Positions 34,294-47,751 of a stretch of DNA of 64,000 nucleotides are shown in pieces. Both the position numbers and the translations under genes were made by a program. Numbering within the stretch: position 1 is the first letter of the stretch; every line of letters starts with the position of its first letter. The notes under the pieces were generated by a model that did no database searches, had not been told where the DNA came from, and worked only from the letters and a program-made list of their open reading frames with translations. Source of the DNA: Oligoflexia bacterium (lineage in GTDB: Bacteria; Bdellovibrionota; UBA1018; CAIPTA01; JAALKR01). The stretch spans positions 2,239 through 66,238 of the forward strand of contig JAALKR010000009.1 of the NCBI GenBank assembly GCA_011087955.1. Direction: 5' to 3'.

Positions 34294-35139
34294 TCAATGA
34301 GAGTAGAGCGTGAGGCTTAGGCTTTCGATGTGCCCGCTGGCGGACCACCATAAATTATTTTTAACAATTAGTTTCCAGTCGCTGAGAGAGTTTAAGCCAT
34401 GAAGATTGCTTAGCGTCGGTAATGAGTCTCCATTGCGTCCCCAAGTGCGGACAATATTATTCGTTCTAGCACCAGTACGATTGTGAAGTTCGATCCTTTG
34501 GCCGCTAGCAACATGCTCTAGGTGTACAACCAGACTCCCAATGTAGGGGTGTTGAATATTGATGGATAAAGTTACATCCGCGATTGGAATTTGCTCAAGG
34601 ATAGAAAAAGTAAATTCCGAAGTTTGCTGGCGGGGCACTGGAATTCCAATGTTTGATTGCGCAAATTGCACAGCTGGAAGTGGTTGCACGAAAAAAGGGA
34701 CTTCAATCCAAGTGCGATGTACTTGCTCAACTGCATCGCGATAGGTGCCCACAAATAACAGGGCTGCCGACTGCCCACGCTCACAATCTGCTTTCATTGT
34801 GATTCGAAATGGCCCAAGTCGCAGGCTGGCACCGCCGACAATAAGCGGTTGCGTCCATTCGCCGACAATATTTTCTACACAGGAACCAGTCCTGGCTTGC
34901 ATGTGCACATCTCGCAATACGTAGGAGGAGGAGGAGGAGGAGGAGGAGGGGGCAGAGTTCATGACAGTGATGTAAATGTCGCCAGCTTGCCCCGGTGGAA
35001 TAGCATCTTTGTAGGGACTTCCGATTGTCCCATAGTCAATAGATTCAAAACTGATGATCGAAGAAAGCGCAGGGGCAGCACTGAAAAATGTACAAAGTAT
35101 GAATGGGAATAGAAAAGTAAGAATTTGTAATAGTTTCAT
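34294..35139 (-). CDS. Secreted proprotein-convertase P-domain protein, tandem paralog A (no protease domain)
   Basis: Signal peptide 'ILTFLFPFILCTFFSAAPALS', a Ser9 tract, and a C-terminal P-domain-like pattern 'VTLSINIQHPYIGSLVVHLEHVASGQRIELH...LNSLSDWKLIV'. The extreme C terminus has diverged ('KNNLWWSASG'). Confidence 0.75.
   Translation of the reverse strand: MKLLQILTFLFPFILCTFFSAAPALSSIISFESIDYGTIGSPYKDAIPPGQAGDIYITVMNSAPSSSSSSSSYVLRDVHMQARTGSCVENIVGEWTQPLIVGGASLRLGPFRITMKADCERGQSAALLFVGTYRDAVEQVHRTWIEVPFFVQPLPAVQFAQSNIGIPVPRQQTSEFTFSILEQIPIADVTLSINIQHPYIGSLVVHLEHVASGQRIELHNRTGARTNNIVRTWGRNGDSLPTLSNLHGLNSLSDWKLIVKNNLWWSASGHIESLSLTLYSH
34923..34949. repeat. (AGG)9 trinucleotide microsatellite (Ser9 on the coding strand), copy A
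   Basis: Nine contiguous AGG units were counted directly. The tract is in frame within the P-domain paralog A. Confidence 0.95.
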
Positions 35140-35155: not shown

Positions 35156-35998
35156 TTAGTTAGCGTAAAGAACGAGGTTCAGGCTCTCGATGTGCCCATC
35201 GTCTTGGGACATCTCGTCTACCACAGTTAGCTTCCAGTCGCTGAGAGAGTTTAAGCCATGAAGATTGCTTAGCGCCGGCAATGAGTCTCCATTGCGTCCC
35301 CAAGTGCGGACAATGTTATCCTTATTTCTACCAGTACGCCTGTGAAGTTCGACCCTTTGGCCGCTAGCAACATGCTCTAGGTGTACAACCAGATCCCCAA
35401 TGTAGGGGTGTTGAATATTGATGGATAAAGTTACACCCGCAATTGGAATTTGCTCATGGATAGAAAAAGTAAATTCCGAAGTTTGCTGACTGTGCACTGG
35501 AATTCCAATGTTTGATTGCGCAAATTGCACAACTGGAAATGATTGCACGAAAAAAGGGACTTCAATCCAAGTGCGATGTACTTGCTCAATTGTATCGCGG
35601 TAGGTGCCCACAAATAACAGGGCTGCCGACTGCCCGCGCTCACAATCTGCTTTCATTGTGATTCGAAATGGCCCAAGTCGCAGGCTGGCACCGCCGACAA
35701 TAAGCGGTTGCGTCCATTCGCCGACAATATTTTCTACACAGGAACCAGTCCTGGCTTGCATGTGCACATCTCGCAATACGTAGGAGGAGGAGGAGGAGGA
35801 GGAGGAGGGGGCAGAGTTCATGACAGTGATGTAAATGTCGCCAGCTTGCCCCGGTGGAATAGCATCTTTGTAGGGACTTCCGATTGTCCCATAGTCAATA
35901 GATTCAAAACTGATGATCGAAGAAAGCGCAGGGGCAGCACTGAAAAATGTACAAAGTATGAATGGGAATAGAAAAGTAAGAATTTGTAATGGGTTCAT
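35156..35998 (-). CDS. Secreted proprotein-convertase P-domain protein, tandem paralog B (no protease domain)
   Basis: Same architecture as paralog A. The canonical P-domain end 'WKLTVVDEMSQDDGHIESLNLVL' is retained. The start is set at ATG 35998, preceded by AAGGAGAG; the track ORF extends to 36073. Confidence 0.78.
   Translation of the reverse strand: MNPLQILTFLFPFILCTFFSAAPALSSIISFESIDYGTIGSPYKDAIPPGQAGDIYITVMNSAPSSSSSSSSYVLRDVHMQARTGSCVENIVGEWTQPLIVGGASLRLGPFRITMKADCERGQSAALLFVGTYRDTIEQVHRTWIEVPFFVQSFPVVQFAQSNIGIPVHSQQTSEFTFSIHEQIPIAGVTLSINIQHPYIGDLVVHLEHVASGQRVELHRRTGRNKDNIVRTWGRNGDSLPALSNLHGLNSLSDWKLTVVDEMSQDDGHIESLNLVLYAN
35782..35808. repeat. (AGG)9 trinucleotide microsatellite (Ser9 on the coding strand), copy B
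   Basis: Nine contiguous AGG units were counted directly. The tract is in frame within the P-domain paralog B. Confidence 0.95.
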
Positions 35999-36127
35999 GG
36001 ACTCTCCTTGGTAGCATTTGATATTTTTTAGGTTACAATTCAGGGGAACGTTAGGCAAACTGTTTGAAAGCACAAGGATCTAACGCGAAACGTTATTTGT
36101 TGGCTTGGAAGTTTAAGGAGGAAGCAG

Positions 36128-36823
36128 ATGTTTATTGTAAATGCCTTCGAGCAAGGCGGAATTTTCATGTATTTTATTTTGATTTTTTTCGTGCTGACGA
36201 TTGCTTTTATCGTCGAGCGAACACTTGCGCTTTATGTCCATTTCAAGGATGCACCGAAAGATTTTCATAAAAATTTACTGGAGTGTATACGGCGAAACGA
36301 TATGAATGCGGGCACGAATTTAGCGGCCCAATATGATGATACGGCCTTGGGCAGAATTGCGAAGCTTGGCTTTATGCTTCGTGGCGAGGCAGCAAGTGAT
36401 GAGGAGTTGCAGGCGCGTATGGACGAGAAACTTAGTGAGGAGTTGGGGCGAGTAGATAAGCGCACAAATTTTCTGGCTATGTATGGAAACGTTGCGACGC
36501 TAGTTGGTCTTCTTGGGACAATCGGTGGCATGGTGATTGCTTTCGCTGGTGTGGCGGATGCTAACCCAGCTGATCGCGCGACCTTGCTCTCGCTAGGTAT
36601 CTCCCACGCGCTGAACTGTACTGCGTTTGGCCTCTTGGTTGCAATTCCGGCGTTGGTTGCTTATGCAGTATTTCAGAATCGTACCGACGCAATTACTTGG
36701 GATATGACTCATGGGACGACAGAGCTCTATCATGATTTGCTTTTTTATACGGAAACGGGGGTGGAGTCCGGTCGTTCATCGCAAGCTAATACGCCTCCAG
36801 GCTCTCCGGAGATGAACGCCTAA
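36128..36823 (+). CDS. MotA/TolQ/ExbB-family proton-channel protein (AglR-like)
   Basis: Three TM segments and the family core 'FLAMYGNVATLVGLLGTIGGMVIAF' and 'ALNCTAFGLLVAIPALVAY'. First gene of the coupled operon, preceded by AAGGAGGAAG. Confidence 0.85.
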   Translation: MFIVNAFEQGGIFMYFILIFFVLTIAFIVERTLALYVHFKDAPKDFHKNLLECIRRNDMNAGTNLAAQYDDTALGRIAKLGFMLRGEAASDEELQARMDEKLSEELGRVDKRTNFLAMYGNVATLVGLLGTIGGMVIAFAGVADANPADRATLLSLGISHALNCTAFGLLVAIPALVAYAVFQNRTDAITWDMTHGTTELYHDLLFYTETGVESGRSSQANTPPGSPEMNA

Positions 36824-37302
36824 TGGCGGCAGCTATGGAGACGGGCTCGTCTTCAAAGCGAGCGCTCGTGGCAGATATTAACCTTGTTCCTTTTATTGAC
36901 CTGCTGTCCGTATGTATTTGCTTTCTTCTGATTACGGCGGTGTGGGTGCAGTTAGGGATTTTAGAAGTTAAACAGAGTCAGGGTACTTCGGCCGCTGTGG
37001 CGGAAGGTGGTTTCGAGATTGGAGTACGGTTGGTGAGTCCAGCTGCTGTCCAGATGGAGTTGCGAAAGAACGGACGTGTGTGGCAGAGGAAGAAGGTTGT
37101 GGCCTCGACTTTAAAAGAATTACAGGCGGCTGTTGCAGGAGTTGCGCAAGAATTTAGGGCTCGCGCCAAAAATCAAGTAAGTGCAGCGCTTTTAACGCCA
37201 AATGCTTCGGTAGACTACGGGTACTTGGTGGCCTTGATGGATACTCTGCGCAGGAATGAAATTACAAACCTTGGTGTGGTTGCAGTTGGAGGGAGTCGCT
37301 AG
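36823..37302 (+). CDS. ExbD/TolR-family protein (AglQ/AglS-like), copy 1
   Basis: Single TM with the conserved Asp, 'INLVPFIDLLSVCICFLLI', and a periplasmic domain. The start overlaps the upstream stop (TAATG). Confidence 0.8.
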   Translation: MAAAMETGSSSKRALVADINLVPFIDLLSVCICFLLITAVWVQLGILEVKQSQGTSAAVAEGGFEIGVRLVSPAAVQMELRKNGRVWQRKKVVASTLKELQAAVAGVAQEFRARAKNQVSAALLTPNASVDYGYLVALMDTLRRNEITNLGVVAVGGSR

Positions 37303-37820
37303 TGTTGGGTGCTATTCGACTAAGGCCGGGATCTTTTCACCATCATTTGGTTGCTAGAAAGCATAAGCGCGTTCAGTCGAAGCGTACCTTGCTGATTGCG
37401 CTCTCGCTGACAGCGATGGTGGATATGTTTGCGGTGTTGGTGATTTTTCTGTTGCAAAGTTTTTCGGCTTCGCCGGAATTGATTGTCACTAAGGGGATTG
37501 AGTTACCGAAGGCAATTTCGGGGGGAGAGATCAGGGAGGCGCCGGTGCTGGCGCTAGTGAATGGTGAGCTCTTCTTGGATCAGGAGCTCATTGGTGCAGT
37601 TGGGGCGACGTTGAGGGCACCGAAGGAATTAATGGCCCGCCTGAAAGCAGTGCGTGAGGGGTGGCAGAAGGATTATCCGGAGAAGGAGTTTCCGGGTGAG
37701 ATCAATTTGCAAGCGGACCAATCGATTCCAAGTACTGTTATAGGACAAGTGATGGGGATTGTTTCACAGGCTCACTATTATTCGATTCAATTGGCGGTAT
37801 TGGCGAAGGGCTCTAAATAA
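37302..37820 (+). CDS. ExbD/TolR-family protein (AglQ/AglS-like), copy 2
   Basis: Single TM with the conserved Asp, 'LSLTAMVDMFAVLVIFLL'. The GTG start overlaps the upstream stop (TAGTG). Confidence 0.8.
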   Translation: MLGAIRLRPGSFHHHLVARKHKRVQSKRTLLIALSLTAMVDMFAVLVIFLLQSFSASPELIVTKGIELPKAISGGEIREAPVLALVNGELFLDQELIGAVGATLRAPKELMARLKAVREGWQKDYPEKEFPGEINLQADQSIPSTVIGQVMGIVSQAHYYSIQLAVLAKGSK

Positions 37821-37838
37821 GCGAGAGGTGCTAAATAG

Positions 37839-40619
37839 ATGATGCGTTTCTTTTATCTGGTACTTACGGTTTTTTTTCTGGTTCCAACTGTGCATGCGAA
37901 TGAAATGATTATTCGAGATGTGGAGAGGTTGCGCAATTCTTTGCCGGCAAAGGACCCGGCCCGTAAAGAGCTAGCCTTGCGCTTGGCGGATTTGTATTTT
38001 TTTGCCGCAGTCGATCAGGATAAGCAAGCGCGATTGGCGACTACGGGAGCGCAGGTGCTGGACCAAAAGGCGGCTCGCTCTCGACAAAGGGCCTTGAATT
38101 TATACCGCGAAAGTATTCGTCTGGGGCTTAATGGGGAAACGCGTATTAAGGTGGATTTCCAGATGGCGCGCCTTCTGGATCAGCTGGGTCGGAGTAGTGA
38201 GGCTTTGCCGTTATGGCGAAAGTCGTACGCGCAAAAGCAGATTCTAAATGTCCGTAGAGAAGCGGTTTTGAAGTTAGCTGAGCAAGCGGAGTCGAGTAAT
38301 TCATTGGCAGGTGCTGAGGGTTTCTATAAGGAGGCTTTGTCTCTTTGTGAGTCTGCGTGTAATTTTGTGCGTTACAGGCTGGGGTGGGTCTATCGTAACC
38401 AGGGGCAAATTAAGCTAGCACTACGAGAAATCAAGAAAGCTCTATGGGATAAGAAAGGGCAGGTGCAAGAGGAGGTCCTGCGCGACTATATGGCCTTTCT
38501 TGTGCAAGAGCCTGGGGATGGTTCTTCGGCGGTGCTTGTTGTTGAGAACTTAATGGAACGAACAGGGCGCAAGGGCTTATTGGAGAATTTGGCCTATGGG
38601 TTTTATGCGGCTGGAAATAAGACGGCTGGAACAAATGTGCTTGCAGTCGTAACGGCTCACGCTCCAAATATTAAGAATCAAATTCGCTTATTAGAAGAGT
38701 ATTACGGCTTGCGCAAGTGGGATCAATTCCGTGAATTGCGTGAGCGTGTGGAGCCAGCAGCGATTAGCGGTATGGATCTAGATTCACAGAAAAACGCGGA
38801 GAAAATTATGCGCCGACTGGCGGTTCAGCTAGAGGCGGAGCAGAAGCAAAACAGCTCAATCAAAGCGGAATTCTTGGCGACGAATAGCTTGTATCTCGAC
38901 CTATTTCCAGAGAGTGAAATCGCCACAAAAGTAATGCGCTCTTGGTTGAGTGTAGAGGCTCACCAAAAGACAAAAATGACGAAAATCGCTGCTTGGCTTT
39001 CCGATCCGAGGCGAAAATTTAAGGACGCAGAAGCTCTAGAGTTGCGAGAGGAGCGAGCTCGTTTGGCGCAAGAGGAAAGCGATTTCTTGGTGCTGCGTGA
39101 AGAGATGGAGCGTCTGCAAAAGATGTATACGAGCGTGGGTAAGCGAGAAAAGGCAAAATACCTGATTGCACAATCTCATTATAAAGAGGGCGCGTTGGAT
39201 AAGGCATTGCCGCTCTTTAAGGAATTAGCTGCTTTTACTGGGTCAACGCCCAGTAAATGGTCTATTCAGGCACAAAACCTAGCTTTGGATATCTATAACC
39301 AGAGGCAAGACTATGTAACCCTAATAGTTCAGGCTGATACGTGGCTTGGGCGAACTTGGGCGAACTCAACTAAGCCGACGAAGGAATTAATGGATATTCA
39401 CAAAGTGCGAGAGCAAGCAAACTTTGAGTTTGCTACAGCTTCTGGGATTACGCCAAATGCCCTGGGTATTTTTTATCAGTATTGTAATGCAGGTGAGTTT
39501 TTGCCGAAATCCTGTGTGAATGCGAAGCGTCTTGCTGTGGCACTAAAGGACCAAGCAAAGCTAATGAACATTTTGCGTAAGACTAATGCCAAGGAGGAAT
39601 TAATTAACGAATATGAAATTAGTGGTCATTATGCGAAGTCGGCAGAGTTACTTGTAGAGAAGACGCCACTTAAGTCAAATAAGTGGTCCTTTGAGCAGGG
39701 GATGAAGATAGCGCTCCTCTATGAATTGGCGGGTAATTTTACAAAGCGCGATCGTTGGTTGCGCCCGATTGCAAAGCGTTATCATCGTAAGGCGATTCCA
39801 GAGGCATCGGAGCAGCTCTTATATTCGACGCTAAAAGATGCGCGCATGCTTAAGTCGGCAGCTTTGAAAATTAAATGGTCTAAGCCGTTTAAGATGCAGT
39901 TGGTTCGATACCTTGAGGAGTCGGGGCAGAGTACAAAGCAGAGTAAAAAAATGTTACTTACGGAGAAGGAGAATCAGGGGAGGGCTTGGGAGTATTATCA
40001 CCTGCGAGATCTATTCGAATTGGCTCGTCAGGAGCGGGTAATGAAATTTTATGGCCGTGGTTCAAAGCGAAAATTCCAAAGGCGCTTAGCTCGAATTAGG
40101 AAGTTTGATGAAAAGGCGAATAAGGTTCTAGAGCAATTGAGTTCAGAGTCGCGAATGCAAGTGATTGCGTTGCTACATCACTCTTATAATAATTTAGGTG
40201 CAGAGGTTCGTGCCACTCCGATCCCGGATGGTTTGGAGGAGGTGGCTATCACGCAGATTAAGGCGAGCTTAGAGGCAATGGCGCGGCCGTTTGCCGAAAA
40301 GGCTAGATCCTACATGGATTTATATACGACTGAATTAGCTAAGGTTACGGACTTGGAAAAGAAGGAAGTCCTAGCTGCTGTAGTTACAAGTGATGTGACC
40401 CCGAAGGAGCTGCTCACCCGGGCAGTTCGTCCGGAGCCAAAGAAGGAAGAGTTAAAGCCATTGGCAGGCGTGTTTCCCCTGTTAAGCGAGTTGCATAAAG
40501 ATCCACTGTCCAGAGTCACAGTTGGTTCTTTAAAAGAGTTTTATACGAAACAAGGTCGTGTTCGGCTGGCCTCCTACTATGAAGGTCGACTGCGTCTAAT
40601 GGATGGAGGGACGAAGTAA
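37839..40619 (+). CDS. Large secreted TPR/helical-repeat protein (AgmU/GltD/NfsD-like, tentative)
   Basis: 926 aa with signal peptide 'FFYLVLTVFFLVPTVHA' and helical-repeat character throughout. The position after the TolQ/TolR-like genes parallels Agl-Glt/Nfs clusters. Homology is not verified. Confidence 0.55.
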   Translation: MMRFFYLVLTVFFLVPTVHANEMIIRDVERLRNSLPAKDPARKELALRLADLYFFAAVDQDKQARLATTGAQVLDQKAARSRQRALNLYRESIRLGLNGETRIKVDFQMARLLDQLGRSSEALPLWRKSYAQKQILNVRREAVLKLAEQAESSNSLAGAEGFYKEALSLCESACNFVRYRLGWVYRNQGQIKLALREIKKALWDKKGQVQEEVLRDYMAFLVQEPGDGSSAVLVVENLMERTGRKGLLENLAYGFYAAGNKTAGTNVLAVVTAHAPNIKNQIRLLEEYYGLRKWDQFRELRERVEPAAISGMDLDSQKNAEKIMRRLAVQLEAEQKQNSSIKAEFLATNSLYLDLFPESEIATKVMRSWLSVEAHQKTKMTKIAAWLSDPRRKFKDAEALELREERARLAQEESDFLVLREEMERLQKMYTSVGKREKAKYLIAQSHYKEGALDKALPLFKELAAFTGSTPSKWSIQAQNLALDIYNQRQDYVTLIVQADTWLGRTWANSTKPTKELMDIHKVREQANFEFATASGITPNALGIFYQYCNAGEFLPKSCVNAKRLAVALKDQAKLMNILRKTNAKEELINEYEISGHYAKSAELLVEKTPLKSNKWSFEQGMKIALLYELAGNFTKRDRWLRPIAKRYHRKAIPEASEQLLYSTLKDARMLKSAALKIKWSKPFKMQLVRYLEESGQSTKQSKKMLLTEKENQGRAWEYYHLRDLFELARQERVMKFYGRGSKRKFQRRLARIRKFDEKANKVLEQLSSESRMQVIALLHHSYNNLGAEVRATPIPDGLEEVAITQIKASLEAMARPFAEKARSYMDLYTTELAKVTDLEKKEVLAAVVTSDVTPKELLTRAVRPEPKKEELKPLAGVFPLLSELHKDPLSRVTVGSLKEFYTKQGRVRLASYYEGRLRLMDGGTK

Positions 40620-40909
40620 TGCCTTATTGCTTGTTAGGACTGTTGGCAATTGCAATGAGTGGTTTGCCTAGCGCGGCAGTTGCTGCGAGAGGGGGGATGA
40701 AAGAGGGTGTGAAGACAAAAAAGACTCACGTTCGCTATAAGAGTTCCAAAGAAATCAATTTTGAAGAGTTATTGATTCAAGGGAAGCTGGAACGCCCAAA
40801 CTTATCTGTAGTCACGGGCTCGGTGGATAAGGATAATTCCTCCTTGCTTCGACTGCGGAAGGATTTTTTAGATCGTGTATCAATGGATTTTGGTGAGGAA
40901 GCAAAGTGA
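40619..40909 (+). CDS. Small secreted protein (96 aa), operon component
   Basis: Signal peptide 'LLGLLAIAMSGLPSAAVA'. The start overlaps the upstream stop (TAATG) and the stop overlaps the next start (GTGA). Confidence 0.55.
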   Translation: MPYCLLGLLAIAMSGLPSAAVAARGGMKEGVKTKKTHVRYKSSKEINFEELLIQGKLERPNLSVVTGSVDKDNSSLLRLRKDFLDRVSMDFGEEAK

Positions 40910-42105
40910 TTACAATAGCAAGTGCCAATGGAAGGTTTTTGCGATCGATTGCAGGTCTTACTGAGTCAGTAATTTACGGGTTTCACCGTCAGTTTGGCTT
41001 GGTCTCGGAGGACACGGCTGAACTGCGATTAAAGAATCGCAAAAAATTTGGTTTAGACCAACGAGACGACTGGCTTTGTCGTTTTCGCTTAATGCCCTCC
41101 TCTGATGGTGGCGTTGACATTGTCGCCGAAGAGGATTGTGTTGTCACTCGTCGCAATAAGGCTTGGTGGATTGAGAGTCCAGCGCTTAGTTTTCAGCTCT
41201 CCTATGCAGAGACGGAGTTTACTCCAGTAGAAACAGCAGCGACATGGAAAGAGCCTCGTGATCGAATCATTCCAGCTGTTTCACTCGCACTTTTGGCCCT
41301 GTTCTTGATTGGGTTATTTTTCCCATGGAAGGGTGAAGAGATTGCTGAAGAGGAGCCAGAAAAGCCTGTAATCGTTAAAGTCGTGAAGCCAAAGCGATCG
41401 GTTACAGTTCCAATGCCAAAAGCACTAAAGAATCTAAAGCAAGTCGCAAAGAGTAAGAAACAAGAGAATAAAGTTCGTCGGGCTGTGAGACAAAACCTTG
41501 GATTTCTGGGCATTCTTGGAGAGGAAAAACTGCGCAAAGCCTTGGGAGGAACGCCTTCGAAATTAAAGGACCTAAGTCCTGGAGCTGGAGCTGGTGGTAA
41601 AGAAGGTAGTGGTGGTGAGCTCCTTGTCGGTCTTGGTAAGGGAGTACGTAAAACTACGGTAGGAAATACGGGTACCGTTGGGCTTGGAGGCGTAGGTACT
41701 AAAGGTAAGGGTGGTGGCCAAGGGGGATATGGAAACGCGGCTGTATCTTCTGGTGTTGGTGGCTCGCTAGCAGGCATCCCGCTTGCGGATGATGTGGTCA
41801 TGGAAGGCGGTTTGTCTCAGGCAGTAATCCAGGCGACGATTGCTAAATACTTGAGTCAAGTGCGGGCTTGCTACGAGGTGGGGCTGCGAAAGAAGCCGGG
41901 GCTAGCAGGTACGGTGGCAACAAGGTTTGAAATTGGGCCAAGCGGTAGATTGAATTACTCCAAAGTAGCGCGATCCACTCTAAGTAATTCACAAGTAGAG
42001 GATTGTATTGTTCGTAACATGAAGCAATGGCAATTCCCGCGCCCAGAGGGGGGCGTAAAAGTAAAAGTATCGTATCCATTTTTATTGAGGCCGGTAAGGC
42101 TTTAA
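40906..42105 (+). CDS. Bitopic TonB-like protein with AgmX/PglI-type C-terminal domain
   Basis: A cytoplasmic N-domain, one TM ('AVSLALLALFLIGLFF'), a Lys-rich then Gly-rich spacer ('GAGAGGKEGSGG', 'GTKGKGGGQGGYG'), and a C-terminal domain 'AVIQATIAKYLSQVRACYEVGLRKKPGLAGTVATRFEIGPSGRL...VEDCIVRNMKQWQFPRPEGGVKVKVSYPFLL' with the two-Cys AgmX/PglI/TonB-C-like pattern. Confidence 0.7.
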   Translation: MITIASANGRFLRSIAGLTESVIYGFHRQFGLVSEDTAELRLKNRKKFGLDQRDDWLCRFRLMPSSDGGVDIVAEEDCVVTRRNKAWWIESPALSFQLSYAETEFTPVETAATWKEPRDRIIPAVSLALLALFLIGLFFPWKGEEIAEEEPEKPVIVKVVKPKRSVTVPMPKALKNLKQVAKSKKQENKVRRAVRQNLGFLGILGEEKLRKALGGTPSKLKDLSPGAGAGGKEGSGGELLVGLGKGVRKTTVGNTGTVGLGGVGTKGKGGGQGGYGNAAVSSGVGGSLAGIPLADDVVMEGGLSQAVIQATIAKYLSQVRACYEVGLRKKPGLAGTVATRFEIGPSGRLNYSKVARSTLSNSQVEDCIVRNMKQWQFPRPEGGVKVKVSYPFLLRPVRL

Positions 42106-42114
42106 GAGGAGGGC

Positions 42115-43602
42115 ATGAGGATGAATTTTTGGTATAGATTGGGAGATAGGTTGAGCACAGGGCTGAGCAGAAGAGTAGGTGTAGGGCTCATTTGCCTAAT
42201 GGTAATTACGGCCTGTAAAAATAACCCGTACCCGGAAGGTGTAACCTTTGAACCCGTTGACGGAAGCGATGAAGAGGTGGTCCGTCAAGAGCCAACCCTC
42301 TTCTTGCGCGCTCAAAATTTGATGCAATTTGTGGAGGGTGAAGAAGCCGTCTACGAGATCAAAGGCTTTTCGCAGTCCGGTGCGACGCAAATTGAATTGT
42401 TTGGGCTGCCACGTGGAGCTGAATTTGACTCAGAAATGGGTGAGTTAAAATGGACACCAGATTTTTTTGCAGCTAATAATCCACAAGATACGGAGGTTTT
42501 TCATCGCACTTATCCACTCCACGTCCGGATTTTTGACGAAGTCAATAGACGGATTTTTTTAGAGCGAGAAGTGACACTGCTCGTATTTGATTCGGCTCGT
42601 GACATGTTAATCTGGACGGACGCGGAAGCAGAGCTAAGCGAGGGTCAGTTTTTTAGTCAGGATGTTGAAGTCTTGGATGAGGACTACCCTGGTTCAGAGA
42701 TTAATCTTTACTCTCCCGACCTTCCAAAGGGCGCAACCTTGGAGCGGATTGCTTCCGATAGCGCGGCGAGTTTCCGCATCACATTTACCGCTCCAGCCGA
42801 TTTTGCGAAGTATGGTGGTAGCTCTGATGCCGACGGTTACTATAGAGATATCAATTTCCGCATTCAGGCCATTGGACCTCGGCAACATGTGAGCACGAAA
42901 GTGATTCAATGGCGTATCCGCGATATGGAACAAAAAATTCGTGTGGCGACTCCGAGTGAGGTCCGCGGGGATGACCGAGTGAATTTCACTGTGCATTTGG
43001 CGGATGAAAATTTTGAAACGGTTCCTCAGATGGAGATTGTCCATCAGCCAGAACAGGGCTCTTTTGTATTGCAAAGAATTCAAGAAAATCAAACGAGAAA
43101 GACGTCTGTCTATGAAGTGGTATGGAGTGAAATACTGCCGTCTATGCAAGGTAAGCAAGAGACTCTACACTTTCGTGCTTGTTCGCACGAAGATCGCCCT
43201 AATGCCTGCCAGGAGTTTAATGTTCAGGTGCTTTTAGATGGGGTAGTTCATCCGAGCCCCAAATTTACACGTAGCTCTTGGCCGCTTGGAGTGCTTAAGA
43301 CGGCTGTCGTTGGGGAAGTAATTGAAGAGAAAATTCAAATTCAAGATCCGGAGGTGCGCTCACCAGTCAAAGATTTAGATATTGAAGTATCGAATCCGGC
43401 GCTGACGGTGGCTTGGGACCGAAGCACGAGTCGGTTGCAGGTGGGATCCACTGCGGTTGGAGTTTTCCAATTTAACCTACGAGCGAGGACAGCCTACGGA
43501 GTCGAAGGGTTGGAATCAATGATGGTAGAATTTTTGGCTCCAACTCCGACGGAGCCTTCTTCGTCAGACCTGCCGGCAATTTTAGAACGTTTAGGAGAGT
43601 GA
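42115..43602 (+). CDS. Lipoprotein (495 aa), operon component of unknown function
   Basis: Lipobox 'LMVITAC'. The protein is beta-rich with repeated Ig-like-looking segments. No family recognised. Confidence 0.6.
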   Translation: MRMNFWYRLGDRLSTGLSRRVGVGLICLMVITACKNNPYPEGVTFEPVDGSDEEVVRQEPTLFLRAQNLMQFVEGEEAVYEIKGFSQSGATQIELFGLPRGAEFDSEMGELKWTPDFFAANNPQDTEVFHRTYPLHVRIFDEVNRRIFLEREVTLLVFDSARDMLIWTDAEAELSEGQFFSQDVEVLDEDYPGSEINLYSPDLPKGATLERIASDSAASFRITFTAPADFAKYGGSSDADGYYRDINFRIQAIGPRQHVSTKVIQWRIRDMEQKIRVATPSEVRGDDRVNFTVHLADENFETVPQMEIVHQPEQGSFVLQRIQENQTRKTSVYEVVWSEILPSMQGKQETLHFRACSHEDRPNACQEFNVQVLLDGVVHPSPKFTRSSWPLGVLKTAVVGEVIEEKIQIQDPEVRSPVKDLDIEVSNPALTVAWDRSTSRLQVGSTAVGVFQFNLRARTAYGVEGLESMMVEFLAPTPTEPSSSDLPAILERLGE

Positions 43603-44372
43603 TTGTGAAAAACTATATTCAATCTATGAAATATCTTGGCGTCGGGCTGAGCTTAATTATGGTTATGCTTTTTTTGCTGCCAGTTATGGTTATGGCCAAT
43701 GAAGCTGCTACAAAAAGCTCAGAAGCCCGAGCAACGGCAAAGCCGGTTCCACTAGCGGAACAGCTAAAAATTTTGGAGTTACCGGCTAATTCCGCGGGGG
43801 CCTCGGTCGCAAAAGAAAAGCTATACTCCGTTCAGGATCGTTATGTTCTGCTTAAAAATCGTTTTGAGTTATCGGTTGCGGGGTCGCATCAGGTAACCGA
43901 TACAGGATTTATCGCCACTCAAGAAGCAGCGTTAGGCGCTCGCTATTATATCGATTCTAAATGGAGTGTGGGGGCTAGTTATTCTTACGCGTTCAACGAG
44001 TTAACTAATTCAACTACAAACTTCTATGAGCAAGAAGGAGTTCTACCGAAAGTACCTTTCGTACAATCCCGTGCGGATCTGACCGGGCGCTATTTGCTTT
44101 TTTACGGTAAATTTCGTTTGAGTATGGATACAGTCCTGTACTTTGATCATTTTGTTTCATTGGGGCCATCCATGATCACTCTGAATACAGGCTCTAGTAT
44201 TGGTGCGGTAGCCGAGACTGGCTTCCTTTTTTGGATCGGCCGTAATTGGAATGCACTTTTCGGTGTGAAGAACTATGTTTTTTCTAAGACGATAAATAAT
44301 GATGGCAGTAAGCAATTTGCCAATCAGGTGCAAATCTACTTCAGTGGTGGTTTCCTCTTTGGGGGTATCTAA
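43599..44372 (+). CDS. Predicted outer-membrane beta-barrel protein (GltA/GltB/NfsA/NfsB-like, tentative)
   Basis: Signal peptide 'LGVGLSLIMVMLFLLPVMVMA', alternating-strand pattern with aromatic girdle residues, about 250 aa. The GTG start overlaps the upstream stop (GTGA); an alternative start is ATG 43626. Confidence 0.6.
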   Translation: MIVKNYIQSMKYLGVGLSLIMVMLFLLPVMVMANEAATKSSEARATAKPVPLAEQLKILELPANSAGASVAKEKLYSVQDRYVLLKNRFELSVAGSHQVTDTGFIATQEAALGARYYIDSKWSVGASYSYAFNELTNSTTNFYEQEGVLPKVPFVQSRADLTGRYLLFYGKFRLSMDTVLYFDHFVSLGPSMITLNTGSSIGAVAETGFLFWIGRNWNALFGVKNYVFSKTINNDGSKQFANQVQIYFSGGFLFGGI

Positions 44373-44374
44373 AT

Positions 44375-45979
44375 ATGATGCGACGAAACTTAGTAGTTCT
44401 TTTTCTTTTTAGTTGTATGGTTTTTATGGGGTCTAGGTTTGAGGCGAGAGCTGAGGGCCGCTCAGGTGCCGATGTGCTAATGCAGTCGGCAAAGCCGAAG
44501 CAAGGCGGCTCTTCCAATCTTGTAGTGGAGCTCGGCTCGGTGGAGTTGAATAACCCACTCGTAATGCATTTTTTTACAGAATGGCAAGCTGCGAGCAAAA
44601 TGAGTTTCCACCAAAACCTTTGGGCGCGACAGGTGCTCGAGCAGAAGTGGGGAAAAATAGCACATCTTTGGCCAACCATTCGCGACTCGGTCGACGATGA
44701 GTTTGCTGTCACAGCGCGGTCTGCGTATGTTTTTGCGCTGTGGAATTTAAACCTAGGGCAGACGTTTTGGAATGAATGGTTTGAAATGGCGCGAGTGGGA
44801 CGCTACCGTGATTCAAAAGCCTTTATTGCGCTTAGTGTGAGCATCCAGCCGGAGTTTGCCAAGCGTTTCTATGATTGGGGCGTACACGTAGAGCGAGAGC
44901 AGGCCGAGTTTCTTTTGAATGAAGTTCAATCTGCCCATCCAATTTTTGATACCGTTCGGGCTCATATCTTACTAAGACAAACGGGAGCGCACGCTAAAGA
45001 CGGAGAAACATTACTACTCCGAATGCCGAAGACGCATCCGTACTATTCTGCCTTAGCACGCACGCTGGCCTTACATTTTGCTCGCCAAGGAGATCTTGGA
45101 GCAGCTGGCTCCATTCTGAAGAAGATTGAGCCGATTACTTTAGGCAGTAAAGACCCGGAGCAAATTGCATCCTATTATTTGCAGATTGCGCGACTCCTTT
45201 ATCAAAGCGGCAACTTATCAGCGGCCTCTGTGTTTTATCGAAAAGTGCCGAAAGGTTCTCGTGACTTCTTAACCGCTCGGGAAGAATTGGCTTGGGTTCT
45301 TTTACAGAGCGGTGAATTTGGGTCCTTGCGGGGTGAATTACAGACTTTCCGGATGGACGTTTGGAAAGATAAATTTTTGCCAGAGGTACATTTAGTGTCG
45401 GCGATCGGTAATTTGAAGCTTTGTTTTTACGGAGAAGTTCGCAAAGACTTCGATCTGTTTCTTAGTAAGAATAAAACGTGGGCCGGTCGTGTAGAGGCTG
45501 AGCTAGCGAAAGCTGATCCAAGCCGTCCGGAGCGTATTGATTTTTACATTGAACGAGCCGAACAAGCCCTTACACAACGGCAAGCAGAACAGGTGAAACT
45601 AAGAGATTTAGCGAGAGAGTCGAAAACAGCCGCATTACCCGCCGTAGGTGTTCAACCTCATTGGCTAGCCGCGGAAAAAGCGATCCAGTTTACGATGGAG
45701 CGAACTCGTAAGCGACAGATGGAAGAATATCGACGAGTGTGGCGGTCGCGTCGATTTGTTTTGCAAGAAGCGATTCGTAAAATGCAATTTGTGAAGGTCG
45801 AACTCATGAGCCAAATGTCACGTTTGGCGGCCAATACGGGTGGTACGAAAAAGTTACGCGGCAATGTTAAAACAAATTTGGTGGCTTCGAAGAATTCAAT
45901 GACCTTTCCATTTGACGGAGTGGCATGGCCAGACGAGTTCTTCAATCTGCAGTCGGTTACGGAGGGCGAATGTTTATAG
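44375..45979 (+). CDS. Secreted helical/TPR-like protein (GltC/NfsC-like, tentative)
   Basis: Signal peptide 'LVVLFLFSCMVFMGSRFEARA' and TPR-like stretches ('YYLQIARLLYQSGNLSAASVFYRKV', 'EELAWVLLQSGEF'). Starts 2 nt after the upstream stop. Confidence 0.5.
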   Translation: MMRRNLVVLFLFSCMVFMGSRFEARAEGRSGADVLMQSAKPKQGGSSNLVVELGSVELNNPLVMHFFTEWQAASKMSFHQNLWARQVLEQKWGKIAHLWPTIRDSVDDEFAVTARSAYVFALWNLNLGQTFWNEWFEMARVGRYRDSKAFIALSVSIQPEFAKRFYDWGVHVEREQAEFLLNEVQSAHPIFDTVRAHILLRQTGAHAKDGETLLLRMPKTHPYYSALARTLALHFARQGDLGAAGSILKKIEPITLGSKDPEQIASYYLQIARLLYQSGNLSAASVFYRKVPKGSRDFLTAREELAWVLLQSGEFGSLRGELQTFRMDVWKDKFLPEVHLVSAIGNLKLCFYGEVRKDFDLFLSKNKTWAGRVEAELAKADPSRPERIDFYIERAEQALTQRQAEQVKLRDLARESKTAALPAVGVQPHWLAAEKAIQFTMERTRKRQMEEYRRVWRSRRFVLQEAIRKMQFVKVELMSQMSRLAANTGGTKKLRGNVKTNLVASKNSMTFPFDGVAWPDEFFNLQSVTEGECL

Positions 45980-46977
45980 TTGCATGTTTTCGAGGCTGGA
46001 TAAGAGCTTTGTGCCTTTCCGCTATTGCATTGATGGTCTTTACAGCTTGTGCAGACCCAGGCTTTGTTCAACGAGTGGATTCGGCACCCCAAATTCGATC
46101 TAACCGATCCTATACGGTGCAGGATTTAGTTTCTGGAAAAGCAGAGATTCTCTGGGTCATCGATAATTCCATTTCTATGGGGCCGTACCAGAATGAACTA
46201 ATGCGTAATATGGATATTTTCATCCGCTCCTTTACACAGACGGCGACTGGCGCAGATTGGCGTATGGGACTCATTTCTACAGATCAGTCGGAACCCCCAT
46301 ATATTGGGTTTATGCCGTCAGATCGCTTAGACCATACCAGCCCAGACCCGGTAGGACAGTTTAGCTCTGCGATTCGACGGCTAGGCGTTAATGGCTCTAT
46401 TACAGAGAAAGCGTTTCGCCCAATTGACATTGCTCTGACGAATTATCCTGATTTCTTGCGAGACGCTTCGGAACTCTTCATTGTCATAGTGAGTGATGAA
46501 GATGAGCAGAGTAGTATTAGTGTGCAGGGTTTTATCAATTGGTTACATACAATTCGTCCACCGGGTTCTATCTCTACGTACGGGATTTTTGAAATGCAAG
46601 AAAGTGGCTGTGGTTCAACACAATTCCAGGGCAAGCGCTATGGGGAGCTTATGAGACTCACCAACGGTTTGACCTTTCCAATTTGTTCGAGAGATTACGG
46701 AAACGGTTTAGCGGCATTTGGTGCGGATATCGCGCAAAAAATTGTCATACCTAAGATTTATCTAGAAGTGGCTCCCATTGTGGAAACTATTCAGGTGCTC
46801 TATGAGGGAACTATGGTGAAGGACGGCTCAGCCGAAGATGGTGGCTATTGGATGTATAATACGGAAGACAACGCTATTTTCTTTCATGATCTAAGTTTCC
46901 TCAGTGGGTCCGATACCGCAACCGAAAATGTTCAGGTCCTATTTGAGCAAGTTCCACCCCCCCCAATTGAAAACTGA
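45970..46977 (+). CDS. Lipoprotein with von Willebrand factor A-like domain
   Basis: Lipobox 'LMVFTAC' and MIDAS-like 'ILWVIDNSISMGPY' (DxSxS), with later 'IVIVSDEDEQS'. ATG 45970 was chosen and overlaps the upstream gene by 10 nt. Confidence 0.65.
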   Translation: MFIVACFRGWIRALCLSAIALMVFTACADPGFVQRVDSAPQIRSNRSYTVQDLVSGKAEILWVIDNSISMGPYQNELMRNMDIFIRSFTQTATGADWRMGLISTDQSEPPYIGFMPSDRLDHTSPDPVGQFSSAIRRLGVNGSITEKAFRPIDIALTNYPDFLRDASELFIVIVSDEDEQSSISVQGFINWLHTIRPPGSISTYGIFEMQESGCGSTQFQGKRYGELMRLTNGLTFPICSRDYGNGLAAFGADIAQKIVIPKIYLEVAPIVETIQVLYEGTMVKDGSAEDGGYWMYNTEDNAIFFHDLSFLSGSDTATENVQVLFEQVPPPPIEN

Positions 46978-47082: not shown

Positions 47083-47751
47083 ATGGCAAAGAAGAAAACT
47101 TCCAAATCCAAAAAAATCTTGAAAGCAAAAACTGTAGGAGTTGCAAAGAAAGCCTCCGCTGAAAAGAAAGTAGTAGCTAAAGTAGCAGGCAGAGTTGCCG
47201 CTAAAAGGGCCCTATCTAAGAAAACTGCTACCAAAAAAATTACGGTTAAGAAGGCTGCTGCCGACAAAACCATAACCAAGAAAAAAGCCAAAGCCAAAGC
47301 CAAAGCCAAAGCTAAAAAGACTACAGCAGCCCAGAAGACTAGAGCAGTGAAGGCGAAAAGTGCGGCGTTCGCTGCAGTAGAGAACCCAGAATTAGAACTT
47401 GCACCAGTTGAAACTCCCGTGGAGGCCAAGATGACAGAAAAAGTAGCGAAAAAGCCGAAGAAAGTAGCAAAAAAACGAGGCAAACGGAAAACCAAGAAGT
47501 CCTCTGTAGCGGAGCAAGAGGGATTTACTTGGCAGGGCCTGAATGATCATTTGGCAGAGGTGGAAGCAGGTTCCTATAGGATCGATGGACAGTTTGATGT
47601 CGGACAGAAAATTTCTCATAAAAAATTTGGTCTTGGGTTTGTTGTTCGCTTAGTTCCGCCAAATAAAATGGATGTCATATTTGAAAATGAGACCAGGTTG
47701 CTCATCAAAGGTCAGCAAGAAATTACTGATGAGATTTTTGGTTTAGAATAA
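47083..47751 (+). CDS. Histone H1-like Lys/Ala-rich protein with C-terminal DUF3553-like domain
   Basis: The N-terminal roughly 140 aa is almost entirely K/A/T/V ('AKKKTSKSKKILKAKTVGVAKKASAEKKVVAKVAGRVAAKR', 'KKAKAKAKAKAKK'). The C-terminal 'FDVGQKISHKKFGLGFVVRLVPPNKMDVIFENETRLL' matches the F-x-G-x-x-V-x-H-x-x-F-G-x-G pattern found at PcrA/UvrD C termini and in DUF3553. Confidence 0.7.
   Translation: MAKKKTSKSKKILKAKTVGVAKKASAEKKVVAKVAGRVAAKRALSKKTATKKITVKKAAADKTITKKKAKAKAKAKAKKTTAAQKTRAVKAKSAAFAAVENPELELAPVETPVEAKMTEKVAKKPKKVAKKRGKRKTKKSSVAEQEGFTWQGLNDHLAEVEAGSYRIDGQFDVGQKISHKKFGLGFVVRLVPPNKMDVIFENETRLLIKGQQEITDEIFGLE
47287..47316. repeat. Hexanucleotide tandem repeat (GCCAAA)4 + GCTAAA encoding (AK)n
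   Basis: Counted directly. The tract is in frame within the H1-like gene. Confidence 0.9.

Follow-up and report, generated by a model that had tools for sequence, protein, structure and literature searches.

One operon of an uncultured Bdellovibrionota bacterium probably encodes a self-contained Agl-Glt-type gliding transducer with a candidate adhesin

Gene clusters of the layout described here have already been published for Bdellovibrio bacteriovorus HD100 (PMC2797640, PMC3169522 Table S3, PMC12546842), and the machine that they encode is of a known kind. Specifically, the HD100 clusters have been assigned AglRQS, GltD, GltG, GltB and GltC (PMC3169522 Table S3) and are co-regulated as units, with Bd0412-0420 induced at prey entry and Bd2368-2377 at prey exit (PMC2797640, PMC12546842). 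Luciano et al. named another cluster, Bd0828-0838, as the best gliding candidate of HD100 (PMC3169522). In Myxococcus, AglR binds GltG (PMC3169522), CglF is GltF (PMC4488436), and CglB and CglD, both vWA lipoproteins, serve as the Glt adhesins. The adhesins of Bdellovibrionota gliding are called unidentified in a 2026 review. Bd1483, a MIDAS adhesin, sits in the agl-like operon Bd1473-1483 (PMC2797640); deletion of its gene leaves predation unaffected, and Tyson et al. (2024) did not connect the MIDAS adhesins to gliding clusters.

The window analyzed here is a stretch of 64,000 nucleotides from an uncultured Bdellovibrionota bacterium, in whose ORF map ten plus-strand open reading frames between positions 36128 and 46977 form one block (Table 1). 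With a probability of about 0.68, a complete trans-envelope "gliding transducer" of Agl-Glt type, self-contained in this one operon, is encoded here. As judged from published gene order, sizes and assignments, the HD100 clusters Bd0412-0420 (Bd0411-0421) and Bd2368-2377 share its order of R, Q, S, D, small ORF, G, unassigned ORF, barrel, C and last ORF. Their proteins measure 248/149/165/987/408/246 and 244/151/175/996/376/235/531 aa, compared with family medians here of 236/160/172/928/400/235/527 aa; Bd2368-2377 comprises ten genes, as does the window operon, and GltE, H, I, J and K are missing from HD100 clusters and window operon alike. The window operon differs in coming from another, uncultured lineage and in an Ig-repeat lipoprotein without the C-terminal domain (about 190 aa) that most relatives carry.

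Table 1. Coordinates of the operon features in the window and the evidence for each
Feature	Coordinates	Strand	Evidence
5' intergenic region, short, ribosome-binding site AAGGAGGAAGCAG-ATG	36074..36127	+	Sequence and ORF map
Gene 1, AglR-like MotA/TolQ/ExbB proton-channel subunit, 231 aa	36128..36823	+	PF01618 (MotA_ExbB) 2.8e-26
Gene 2, ExbD/TolR-type subunit 1 (AglQ/AglS-like), 159 aa	36823..37302	+	PF02472 7.5e-15; TAATG overlap with gene 1
Gene 3, ExbD/TolR-type subunit 2, 172 aa	37302..37820	+	PF02472 8.6e-12; TAGTG overlap
Gene 4, putative secreted TPR/helical scaffold, 926 aa	37839..40619	+	Weak TPR matches; signal peptide read from sequence
Gene 5, GltF/CglF-like small secreted protein, 96 aa	40619..40909	+	NF033764 gliding_CglF 2.2e-10, positions 5-83 of 88
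Gene 6, GltG-like bitopic protein, 399 aa	40906..42105	+	NF033760 GltG 4.7e-37 (128 bits)
Gene 7, lipoprotein, 495 aa, lipobox Cys34	42115..43602	+	AF2 model, Foldseek, profile searches
Gene 8, GltA/GltB-type outer-membrane beta-barrel, 257 aa	43599..44372	+	TIGR04565 OMP_myx_plus 6.9e-16
Gene 9, GltC-like secreted helical/TPR protein, 534 aa	44375..45979	+	NF033756 GltC 5.2e-8
Gene 10, candidate OM lipoprotein adhesin, vWA/MIDAS	45970..46977	+	AF2, Foldseek, profile searches

The block is a genuine ten-gene operon. A sequence-only reading had described ten coupled ORFs on one strand, and the same ORFs were recovered together with the exact junction strings (TAATG at 36821-36825 and 40617-40621, TAGTG at 37300-37304, GTGA at 40906 and 43599). 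A GGAGG ribosome-binding site precedes the first gene, and the gene upstream of the 5' region lies on the opposite strand; a sigma-70 promoter scan of this region gave no convincing match, with hits at or below the shuffled expectation. Among 82 related loci the gene order has zero violations, and median intergenic gaps range from -16 to +19 nt (80 Bdellovibrionota genome loci). All ten ORFs are resolved in 50 loci, the remainder being mostly interrupted by contig ends. The seven downstream genes, which the same reading had expected to be linked to the motor elsewhere, are so in every sufficiently long locus except L075 and L025, the few that truly lack one or two genes. This recurrence is far beyond chance. 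The order is common to Bacteriovoracaceae, Halobacteriovoraceae, Pseudobdellovibrionaceae and Bdellovibrio MAGs. The best species-representative match reaches only 51% identity, for the most conserved protein.

Profile matches and conserved residues uphold the domain calls made earlier (MotA/ExbB, two ExbD with a transmembrane Asp, AgmX/PglI, barrel, lipoproteins and vWA) and, together with synteny, support a compact AglRQS plus GltD/GltG/GltA-B-like machine related to Bdellovibrio-like clusters. The channel gene heads the block in 62 loci, and the transmembrane Asp is kept in both ExbD/TolR-type subunits (D26 in 62/62 and D41 in 66/66 orthologues). The family of gene 4 occupies the fourth position in 73 loci with a median of 928 aa. 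Its product gave no direct match to the GltD profile, and position, size and TPR content suggest a counterpart of GltD (AgmU), the assignment that Luciano et al. gave to Bd0417 (987 aa) and Bd2374 (996 aa) at the same position (PMC3169522). In Bdellovibrionota, full-length homologues of the GltG-like protein number more than 444. Its cytoplasmic N-domain of about 125 aa is conserved and is followed by a single transmembrane helix, a linker rich in Gly and an AgmX/PglI domain that resembles the TonB CTD (NF033768, 103 bits vs cutoff 40) and has two invariant Cys; the protein also matches GltJ (31 bits) and, weakly, TonB CTD entries in the PDB. The single-copy barrel scores just under the TIGR04565 cutoff (58.6 vs 60 bits), and 49/49 family members match this model (best 4.3e-27).

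Of three parts that had been called unassignable, two can now be placed. All 73 members of the gene 5 family match NF033764 (best 4.6e-14), which makes the 96-aa protein assignable, by profile, as GltF/CglF-like, and the vWA lipoprotein appears to be an analogue of CglB/CglD and Bd0875/Bd1483; the 495-aa lipoprotein is still without a Glt/Nfs name. The 534-aa protein, previously unnamed, is GltC-like by its profile match: four of five orthologues tested match the same central GltC region (2e-11 to 3e-9), and Bd2369 (531 aa), at the same position, was assigned GltC (PMC3169522). Since scores to the Myxococcus equivalog models fall far under the curated cutoffs (GltG 128 vs 650, GltC 32 vs 450, CglF 40 vs 90 bits), the operon proteins are family relatives and not orthologues. 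GltE, GltH, GltI, GltJ and GltK are absent from the operon, and all are essential in Myxococcus.

The two lipoproteins are best described by their models. Gene 7 is predicted to encode a rod in which Cys34 and some 25 aa of flexible linker are followed by about four tandem Ig/cadherin-like beta-sandwich domains (AF2 pLDDT 90), with protocadherin EC1-4, RTX-adhesin extender repeats and S-layer proteins as best Foldseek matches (E about 1e-13). He_PIG is matched in 11/50 family members, and a profile search returned giant repeat proteins as well as 204 cluster representatives below 1e-30; relative to the usual family length of about 676 aa, the window protein is shortened. In gene 10, the longest ORF starts at 45925 (350 aa, 55-nt overlap with gene 9), while the ATG at 45970 has GGAGG 6 nt upstream and yields a 335-aa product identical to database protein P0126; the latter is most likely the start, with the 10-nt overlap implied earlier. 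The product carries a lipobox Cys and a DNSIS motif that is the DxSxS of a vWA domain, with D, S and S invariant. Its predicted topology is that of an integrin beta headpiece, with the vWA domain inserted in a beta-sandwich built from the N-terminal and C-terminal ends (AF2 pLDDT 91.4), and the top 40 Foldseek matches are all integrin beta chains (E 2e-10), integrin beta headpieces being the best PDB matches. Within the family (n=59), Pfam VWA is matched by 42/59, the NF052240 MIDAS adhesin by 57/59 and CglD, weakly, by 51/59. The gene is tandemly duplicated in three loci, as would be expected of an end component that binds a ligand, and eggNOG gives "cell adhesion" as the annotation of Bd2368, with which one HD100 cluster ends (PMC12546842). 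As such, the product is a candidate operon-encoded surface adhesin, and the modest novelty of the locus lies in this conserved adhesin candidate for Bdellovibrionota gliding.

A possible but rather doubtful alternative is that a machine of the same family has a non-locomotive output, its motor energizing some process at the outer membrane. For example, the vWA lipoprotein might be surface-exposed or released, the prey envelope might be attached to or remodelled at invasion, or a surface polymer might be transported or assembled. For the polymer variant, Agl-Nfs offers a parallel by moving spore-coat polysaccharide in Myxococcus, but no polysaccharide-synthesis or export genes were found flanking the operon. 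The ancestral core complex is found in non-gliding bacteria and was stated to be insufficient for motility; however, the cluster has the Group A genes (GltF and a GltA/B-type barrel) that Luciano et al. tied to the motility-capable form (both PMC3169522). Four paralogous HD100 clusters are expressed in different windows, one of them with its peak within the bdelloplast (PMC2797640, PMC12546842), and the operon is without GltI, GltJ, GltK and GltH, but Bdellovibrio has been proven to glide and offers no alternative candidate for the machinery (PMC3169522), and traction fits the conserved adhesin-like end component.

It is very improbable that the motor belongs to a Tol-Pal or ExbBD-TonB system that is divergent but otherwise ordinary, works in envelope integrity or TonB-dependent uptake, and has unrelated passenger genes downstream. 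Shared with these systems are a 5:2-type MotA/ExbB-family motor, the ExbD-type Asp and a TonB-CTD-like transducer domain. Although the best named profiles of the motor are TolQ, TolR, ExbB and ExbD, the equivalog cutoffs are widely missed (TolQ 78.5 vs 221, ExbB 57 vs 206 bits), and the channel subunit is equidistant from solved TolQ and ExbB structures in the PDB (about 42-47 bits), so that the canonical TolQR/ExbBD identity against which the earlier reading was to be checked does not apply. The transducer C-domain is weakly TonB_C-like, and eggNOG labels the HD100 homologues TonB-like (PMC12546842), yet the transducer scores 128 bits to GltG vs 23 bits to TonB. The ExbD-type subunits of the operon are of two kinds, and neither the operon nor the DNA adjoining it contains TolA, TolB, Pal, CpoB or a TonB-dependent receptor. 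All seven downstream genes keep their synteny with the motor across about 60 species, and stop and start codons overlap. The missed cutoffs, absent partner genes and downstream synteny exclude a canonical Tol-Pal or ExbBD-TonB system. Bdellocysts are formed by some Bdellovibrio strains. An Nfs-type spore or cyst coat assembly machine, for which the parts list common to Nfs and Glt could speak (PMC3858216), is nonetheless scarcely credible, since GltE/NfsE-like and NfsH-like genes are absent, conservation of the block extends to families for which encystment is not known, expression of the HD100 counterparts falls at prey entry or exit and not in dormancy (PMC12546842), and the operon encodes an adhesin-type end component.

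For the preferred Agl-Glt-type gliding transducer, homology to the Myxococcus system suggests the following model. A proton-driven inner-membrane stator, formed by the AglR-like channel and two ExbD/TolR-type subunits with an essential transmembrane Asp in each, would drive the single-pass GltG-like transducer, whose long periplasmic stretch, rich in Gly, and TonB-like C-domain with its disulfide would dock on the GltD-like TPR scaffold. In turn, the GltF-like and GltC-like proteins may link this shaft to the single GltA/B-type barrel, which would hold or expose both the integrin-beta-like vWA/MIDAS adhesin and the four-domain cadherin/Ig-like rod. Motor work would thus become traction against an adhesin-bound substratum, resulting in slow surface gliding and, in a predator, in movement over, into or out of prey. 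The same role has been proposed in B. bacteriovorus for the similarly organized Bd0412-0420 (entry phase) and Bd2368-2377 (exit phase).

Among known adhesins, gene 10 shares the published vWA-in-beta-sandwich architecture of the Bdellovibrio MIDAS adhesins Bd0875/Bd1483 (NF052240; Tyson et al. 2024), but the likeness does not extend beyond some 55 residues surrounding DxSxS (32 bits vs cutoff 700), and a Bd0875-type cap region is missing. With integrin beta headpieces and CglD it would have in common a betaI-type vWA domain in a hybrid-like beta-sandwich and the MIDAS DxSxS, whereas the TM-score to integrin beta is only about 0.45 at 12-14% identity, EGF and COMP modules are lacking, and the mature protein has about 310 aa vs more than 1100 aa in CglD. 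Compared with the M. xanthus Agl-Glt system (AglRQS, GltA-K, CglB/CglD), whose genes lie in the G1/G2/M1 clusters and the unlinked cglB and cglD, the window holds a single operon without GltE, GltH, GltI, GltJ and GltK, with one barrel in place of two or three, a novel transducer N-domain in place of the FHA domain, and an extra cadherin-like lipoprotein that has no Myxococcus counterpart; its proteins miss all M. xanthus equivalog cutoffs. Both systems nevertheless share the 1+2 TolQ/TolR-type motor, the GltG-type transducer with its AgmX/PglI domain, GltF, a GltA/B-type barrel, a GltC-like connector and a large TPR scaffold, and in both the terminal element is a vWA/MIDAS outer-membrane lipoprotein, gene 10 here appearing analogous to CglB/CglD of Myxococcus.

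The ten-gene plus-strand operon was read as an Agl/Glt-like envelope machine, that is, a relative of the Myxococcus gliding machinery, and this reading is supported: its products match the GltG, AgmX/PglI, GltF/CglF and TIGR04565 barrel models at family level. The ORF map bears out ten consecutive ORFs of the lengths given in the sequence-only reading, as well as the junctions seen there (TAATG at 36821-36825 and 40617-40621, TAGTG at 37300-37304, GTGA at 40906 and 43599); the other intergenic gaps measure 2 to 18 nt, and a GGAGG ribosome-binding site lies ahead of gene 1. The longest ORF of gene 10 starts at 45925. Its probable start, however placed later, is an ATG at 45970 with GGAGG 6 nt upstream; from there the product has 335 aa, equals a protein in a public collection (P0126) and overlaps gene 9 by 10 nt. 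The operon is delimited in this way because its upstream neighbor lies on the opposite strand and the plus-strand ORF downstream is not kept beside the block in one relative. Scans for promoters and terminators returned no matches above shuffled expectation, and second copies of the ten genes were not found elsewhere in the window.

Three further observations concern the setting of the operon. GC skew is clearly positive over it, at 0.14-0.24 per 2-kb window (36000-46000) versus about 0-0.1 in the downstream half of the window, which is consistent with a long plus-strand transcription unit that is highly expressed or on the leading strand. Directly upstream are two tandem genes that both end in a proprotein-convertase P-domain, and no recognizable catalytic domain was reported in either. 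The window also holds adjacent genes for both subunits of topoisomerase VI, a type IIB topoisomerase that is mostly archaeal or plant and is here found in a Bdellovibrionota-like bacterium.

Coordinates of the operon, of features in and around it, and of the related-locus genes discussed in the text
Feature	Location	Strand	Match or remark
Ten-gene operon	36128-46977	+	
P-domain gene, distal	34294-35139	-	PF01483, 1.6e-7
P-domain gene, proximal	35156-36073	-	PF01483, 3.3e-10
Gene 6, N-terminal domain	40906-41290	+	residues 1-~125
Gene 7, 495-aa lipoprotein	42115-43602	+	
Downstream ORF	47083-47751	+	
Topoisomerase VI subunit A/Spo11	48460-49620	-	TP6A_N + Toprim, 8.5e-36
Topoisomerase VI subunit B	49633-51270	-	Topo-VIb transducer, 3.6e-46, + HATPase_c
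Gene 7 orthologue, related locus	L002:6684-8729		C-terminal domain present
Second vWA/MIDAS lipoprotein	L010:15612-16601		between genes 9 and 10
Second vWA/MIDAS lipoprotein	L017:15334-16392		between genes 9 and 10
Second vWA/MIDAS lipoprotein	L045:14444-15469		between genes 9 and 10
Block lacking both lipoprotein genes	L075:11197-13926		Oligoflexales-labelled MAG

The block is conserved as a unit. A scan of a genome collection, with aligned GltG-like (gene 6) sequences as query, yielded 80 loci, B. bacteriovorus not being among them, most of which are labelled Bacteriovoracaceae, Halobacteriovoraceae, Pseudobdellovibrionaceae, Bdellovibrio, or Oligoflexia or Bdellovibrionia MAGs, and a few of which carry generic or discordant bin labels; the species of the window is absent from the GTDB representatives, where the best match reaches only 51% identity, and its relatives place the source as an uncultured Bdellovibrionota-type bacterium. 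The ten-gene layout is kept in each of these 80 loci, whose MAGs are assigned by their labels to several Bdellovibrionota families, and tblastn recovered all ten window proteins, in order, in essentially every locus of sufficient length. All ten ORFs were resolved in 50 of 82 loci with zero order violations, median intergenic distances range from -16 to +19 nt, and the 96-aa ORF (gene 5) is present in 78 loci. Even around a homologue of the 495-aa lipoprotein that is only 26% identical, the arrangement is the same. All ten ORFs, the 96-aa one among them, are therefore conserved coding genes, and both tblastn and ORF resolution show the seven downstream genes linked to the motor in the related loci.

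The motor has the predicted composition of one MotA/TolQ/ExbB protein and two ExbD/TolR proteins, with PF01618 found once (gene 1, 2.8e-26) and PF02472 twice (genes 2 and 3, both ExbD); the transmembrane aspartates correspond to D26 (62/62 orthologues) and D41 (66/66). Two household uses of such a motor were weighed and rejected. An ExbBD-TonB system is contradicted by an ExbB score of 57 bits against an equivalog cutoff of 206, by a transducer linker that is Gly-rich and not Pro-rich, by a TonB_C score of 20.4 against a cutoff of 24.6 and by the lack of an adjacent TonB-dependent receptor. A Tol-Pal system fares no better, as TolQ scores 78.5 against 221 bits and TolR 37 against 127. Family searches of the operon and its flanks found no TolA, TolB, Pal, CpoB or TonB-dependent receptor, and, compared with solved structures, the gene 1 protein lies at the same distance from TolQ as from ExbB (42-47 bits).

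The transducer encoded by gene 6 carries the anticipated TonB-like AgmX/PglI domain (NF033768, 103 bits against a cutoff of 40), whose two cysteines are invariant in the alignment. It also matches the GltG profile (4.7e-37), GltJ and TonB scoring far lower (31 and 23 bits). The alignment resolves four regions: a cytoplasmic N-domain of ~125 aa, one transmembrane helix, a nearly invariant Gly-rich stretch and the two-cysteine C-domain. Specifically, the N-domain is strongly conserved, with invariant G9, G25, G31, R41, R45, G49 and W87, and occupies the place where Myxococcus GltG instead has an FHA domain. No Pfam domain was found there in a scan of 12 transducer homologues, nor any PDB family, and a PilZ-like reading of its invariant RxxxR was unsupported and dropped. 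The N-domain is a candidate regulatory input site.

Among the other periplasmic and outer-membrane parts, the 926-aa product of gene 4 has a signal peptide and weak TPR matches. Because neither it nor five orthologues match the GltD profile, its assignment as GltD stays positional: it draws on the protein's place and length and on the literature, in which Bd0417 (987 aa) and Bd2374 (996 aa), at the same position in HD100 (B. bacteriovorus), are mapped to GltD (PMC3169522). The 96-aa secreted protein is indeed encoded, and it can be mapped after all: it is GltF/CglF-like, matching NF033764 gliding_CglF at 2.2e-10 over almost the full profile, as do all 73 of 73 family members (CglF is GltF; PMC4488436). 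Gene 8, the sole barrel gene in the operon, is confirmed as an outer-membrane barrel by TIGR04565 OMP_myx_plus, with a borderline 58.6 bits against a cutoff of 60 for the window protein and matches for 49 of 49 family members (best 4.3e-27). Gene 9 matches GltC weakly (5.2e-8), and the same holds for four orthologues out of five compared (2e-11 to 3e-9); the matches of this family are weak and cover the central 100-130 residues of the profile.

The two remaining components are lipoproteins. For the 495-aa product of gene 7, which could not be mapped in the sequence-only reading, Pfam and NCBIfam gave nothing when the protein was searched singly, and a PDB-chain sequence search gave nothing meaningful. 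A family structure model (83 sequences, pLDDT 90) is all-beta: a linker of ~25 residues leads into about four beta-sandwich domains in tandem. In the PDB it is closest to protocadherin EC1-4 arrays, RTX-adhesin extender repeats and S-layer proteins. A family-wide scan finds He_PIG, weakly, in 11 of 50 relatives, and a profile search recovers 204 cluster representatives below 1e-30, plus giant multi-repeat proteins. Most family members have ~676 aa; the C-terminal ~190 residues, a Cys-containing domain, are missing from the window protein and from its closest relative, whereas about 60 of 70 orthologues possess them, including that of L002 and those of most loci. Gene 7 is also the most length-variable component (247-763 aa), falling into classes of ~250-380, 470-600 and 670-760 aa, which makes it a modular component.

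Gene 10 encodes a lipobox and an invariant DxSxS; in the numbering of the 335-aa product, D65, S67, S69, T104, E146 and D176 are invariant. The hallmarks of a vWA/MIDAS domain are present: the predicted structure has a Rossmann-like alpha/beta fold that bears DxSxS and, further along the chain, acidic ligands. The AlphaFold2 model (46 sequences, pLDDT 91.4) has alternating beta and alpha elements and best resembles integrin beta-subunit headpieces in the PDB (E 2e-10, TM ~0.45), a PDB-chain sequence search having given nothing meaningful. All sequence matches of the 59 orthologues are weak: Pfam VWA in 42, the CglD model in 51 and NF052240, a Bdellovibrio MIDAS adhesin model with an equivalog cutoff of 700, in 57, the window protein reaching 32.7 bits, short of this cutoff and in the DxSxS region only. 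The predicted architecture is like that of Bd0875/Bd1483 (Tyson et al.), with a lipobox and with the N- and C-termini forming a beta-rich domain into which the MIDAS/vWA domain is inserted.

Three loci contain a second, tandem vWA/MIDAS lipoprotein gene, seen as an apparent insertion of 1-1.2 kb, whose products are 32-34% identical to the window protein, and several metagenomic contigs carry two vWA paralogues each. In L075, the motor, scaffold, GltF, GltG, barrel and GltC-like genes are kept and both lipoprotein genes are absent, a single case that hints that the two lipoproteins work together. The tandem duplicates, the paired paralogues and this double loss support an adhesin role for gene 10.

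By homology, a motor of one channel and two ExbD-type proteins, driven by the proton motive force, would act on the GltG-like transducer; an AglR-GltG interaction has been shown in Myxococcus (PMC3169522). The extended linker and TonB-like domain of the transducer would ride on the TPR scaffold, and the GltF-like and GltC-like proteins may span the distance to the outer-membrane barrel, in line with a published structural model; interfaces have been published for GltAB-K-CglB and GltD-G-F-C. The barrel, in turn, would present the vWA adhesin, and probably the cadherin-like lipoprotein as well. The broader proposal, to which we tentatively assign a probability of about 0.4, is that every Bdellovibrionota Glt-like machine carries its own integrin-beta-like MIDAS lipoprotein and cadherin-like stalk as fixed operon members. 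In Bdellovibrio gliding and in prey entry and exit, the pair would supply the adhesin and the end at which force is delivered, in place of Myxococcus GltK/GltH/CglB, with adhesin duplication and stalk domain loss tuning what each machine can hold.

Bdellovibrio-like predators need slow gliding for prey scouting and for leaving prey; in Bdellovibrio, gliding is regulated by 3',3'-cGAMP. According to a gliding review of 2026, the motor and the adhesins of Bdellovibrio are yet to be identified. The two parts left unassigned in Myxococcus-centred surveys are a vWA/MIDAS lipoprotein of integrin-beta topology and a cadherin/Ig-repeat lipoprotein, and this conserved, operon-encoded pair of adhesin and stalk is a candidate for the output end so far missing in the gliding of Bdellovibrionota. 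The comparison also links the MIDAS adhesins of Bdellovibrio, until now a separate field of study, to gliding clusters; the MIDAS-adhesin literature searched does not mention these clusters, and none of the papers searched connects CglB-type adhesins with the clusters of Bdellovibrio. Specifically, bd2368, bd0412, bd2371 and bd0415 offer single-gene targets for grip on surfaces or prey in the genetically tractable HD100.

Relative to Myxococcus, the resemblance is one of family: the GltG-like, GltC-like and CglF-like proteins stay below the equivalog cutoffs that mark the orthologue level (128 against 650, 32 against 450 and 40 against 90 bits). The terminal adhesins of Myxococcus Glt are the vWA lipoproteins CglB and CglD, the latter beta-integrin-like, and both are encoded elsewhere in the genome. 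GltE, GltH, GltI, GltJ and GltK were not found in the operon or the window, and no GltE homologue is listed for the like-organized Bdellovibrio clusters (PMC3169522). A counterpart of the Nfs spore-coat machine is rejected, as a GltE/NfsE- or GltH/NfsH-like gene is lacking and the HD100 counterparts are predation-phase proteins (PMC12546842). Lambert et al. 2010 (PMC2797640) described four tonB/agl-like operons in HD100 (Bd0412-0420, Bd0828-0838, Bd1473-1483 and Bd2368-2377), and Luciano et al. 2011 (PMC3169522) termed these "expanded core complexes" with an evolutionary link to Myxococcus Agl-Glt, GltH, I, J and K being absent. In the 2025 quantitative proteome (PMC12546842), Bd0411-0421 peak early in the bdelloplast, the detected Bd2368-2377 proteins all peak at prey exit, and Bd2368 bears the eggNOG label "cell adhesion". 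Two of these clusters, Bd0420 to Bd0413 and Bd2377 to Bd2369 (PMC3169522 Table S3), share the gene order R-Q-S-D-(F)-G-(X)-barrel-C-(last) and near-equal protein sizes with the window operon, and their unassigned ORFs lie at the positions of genes 5, 7 and 10. The window contains no new kind of system; with the same order and near-equal sizes, its operon is therefore another member of the cluster type already described.
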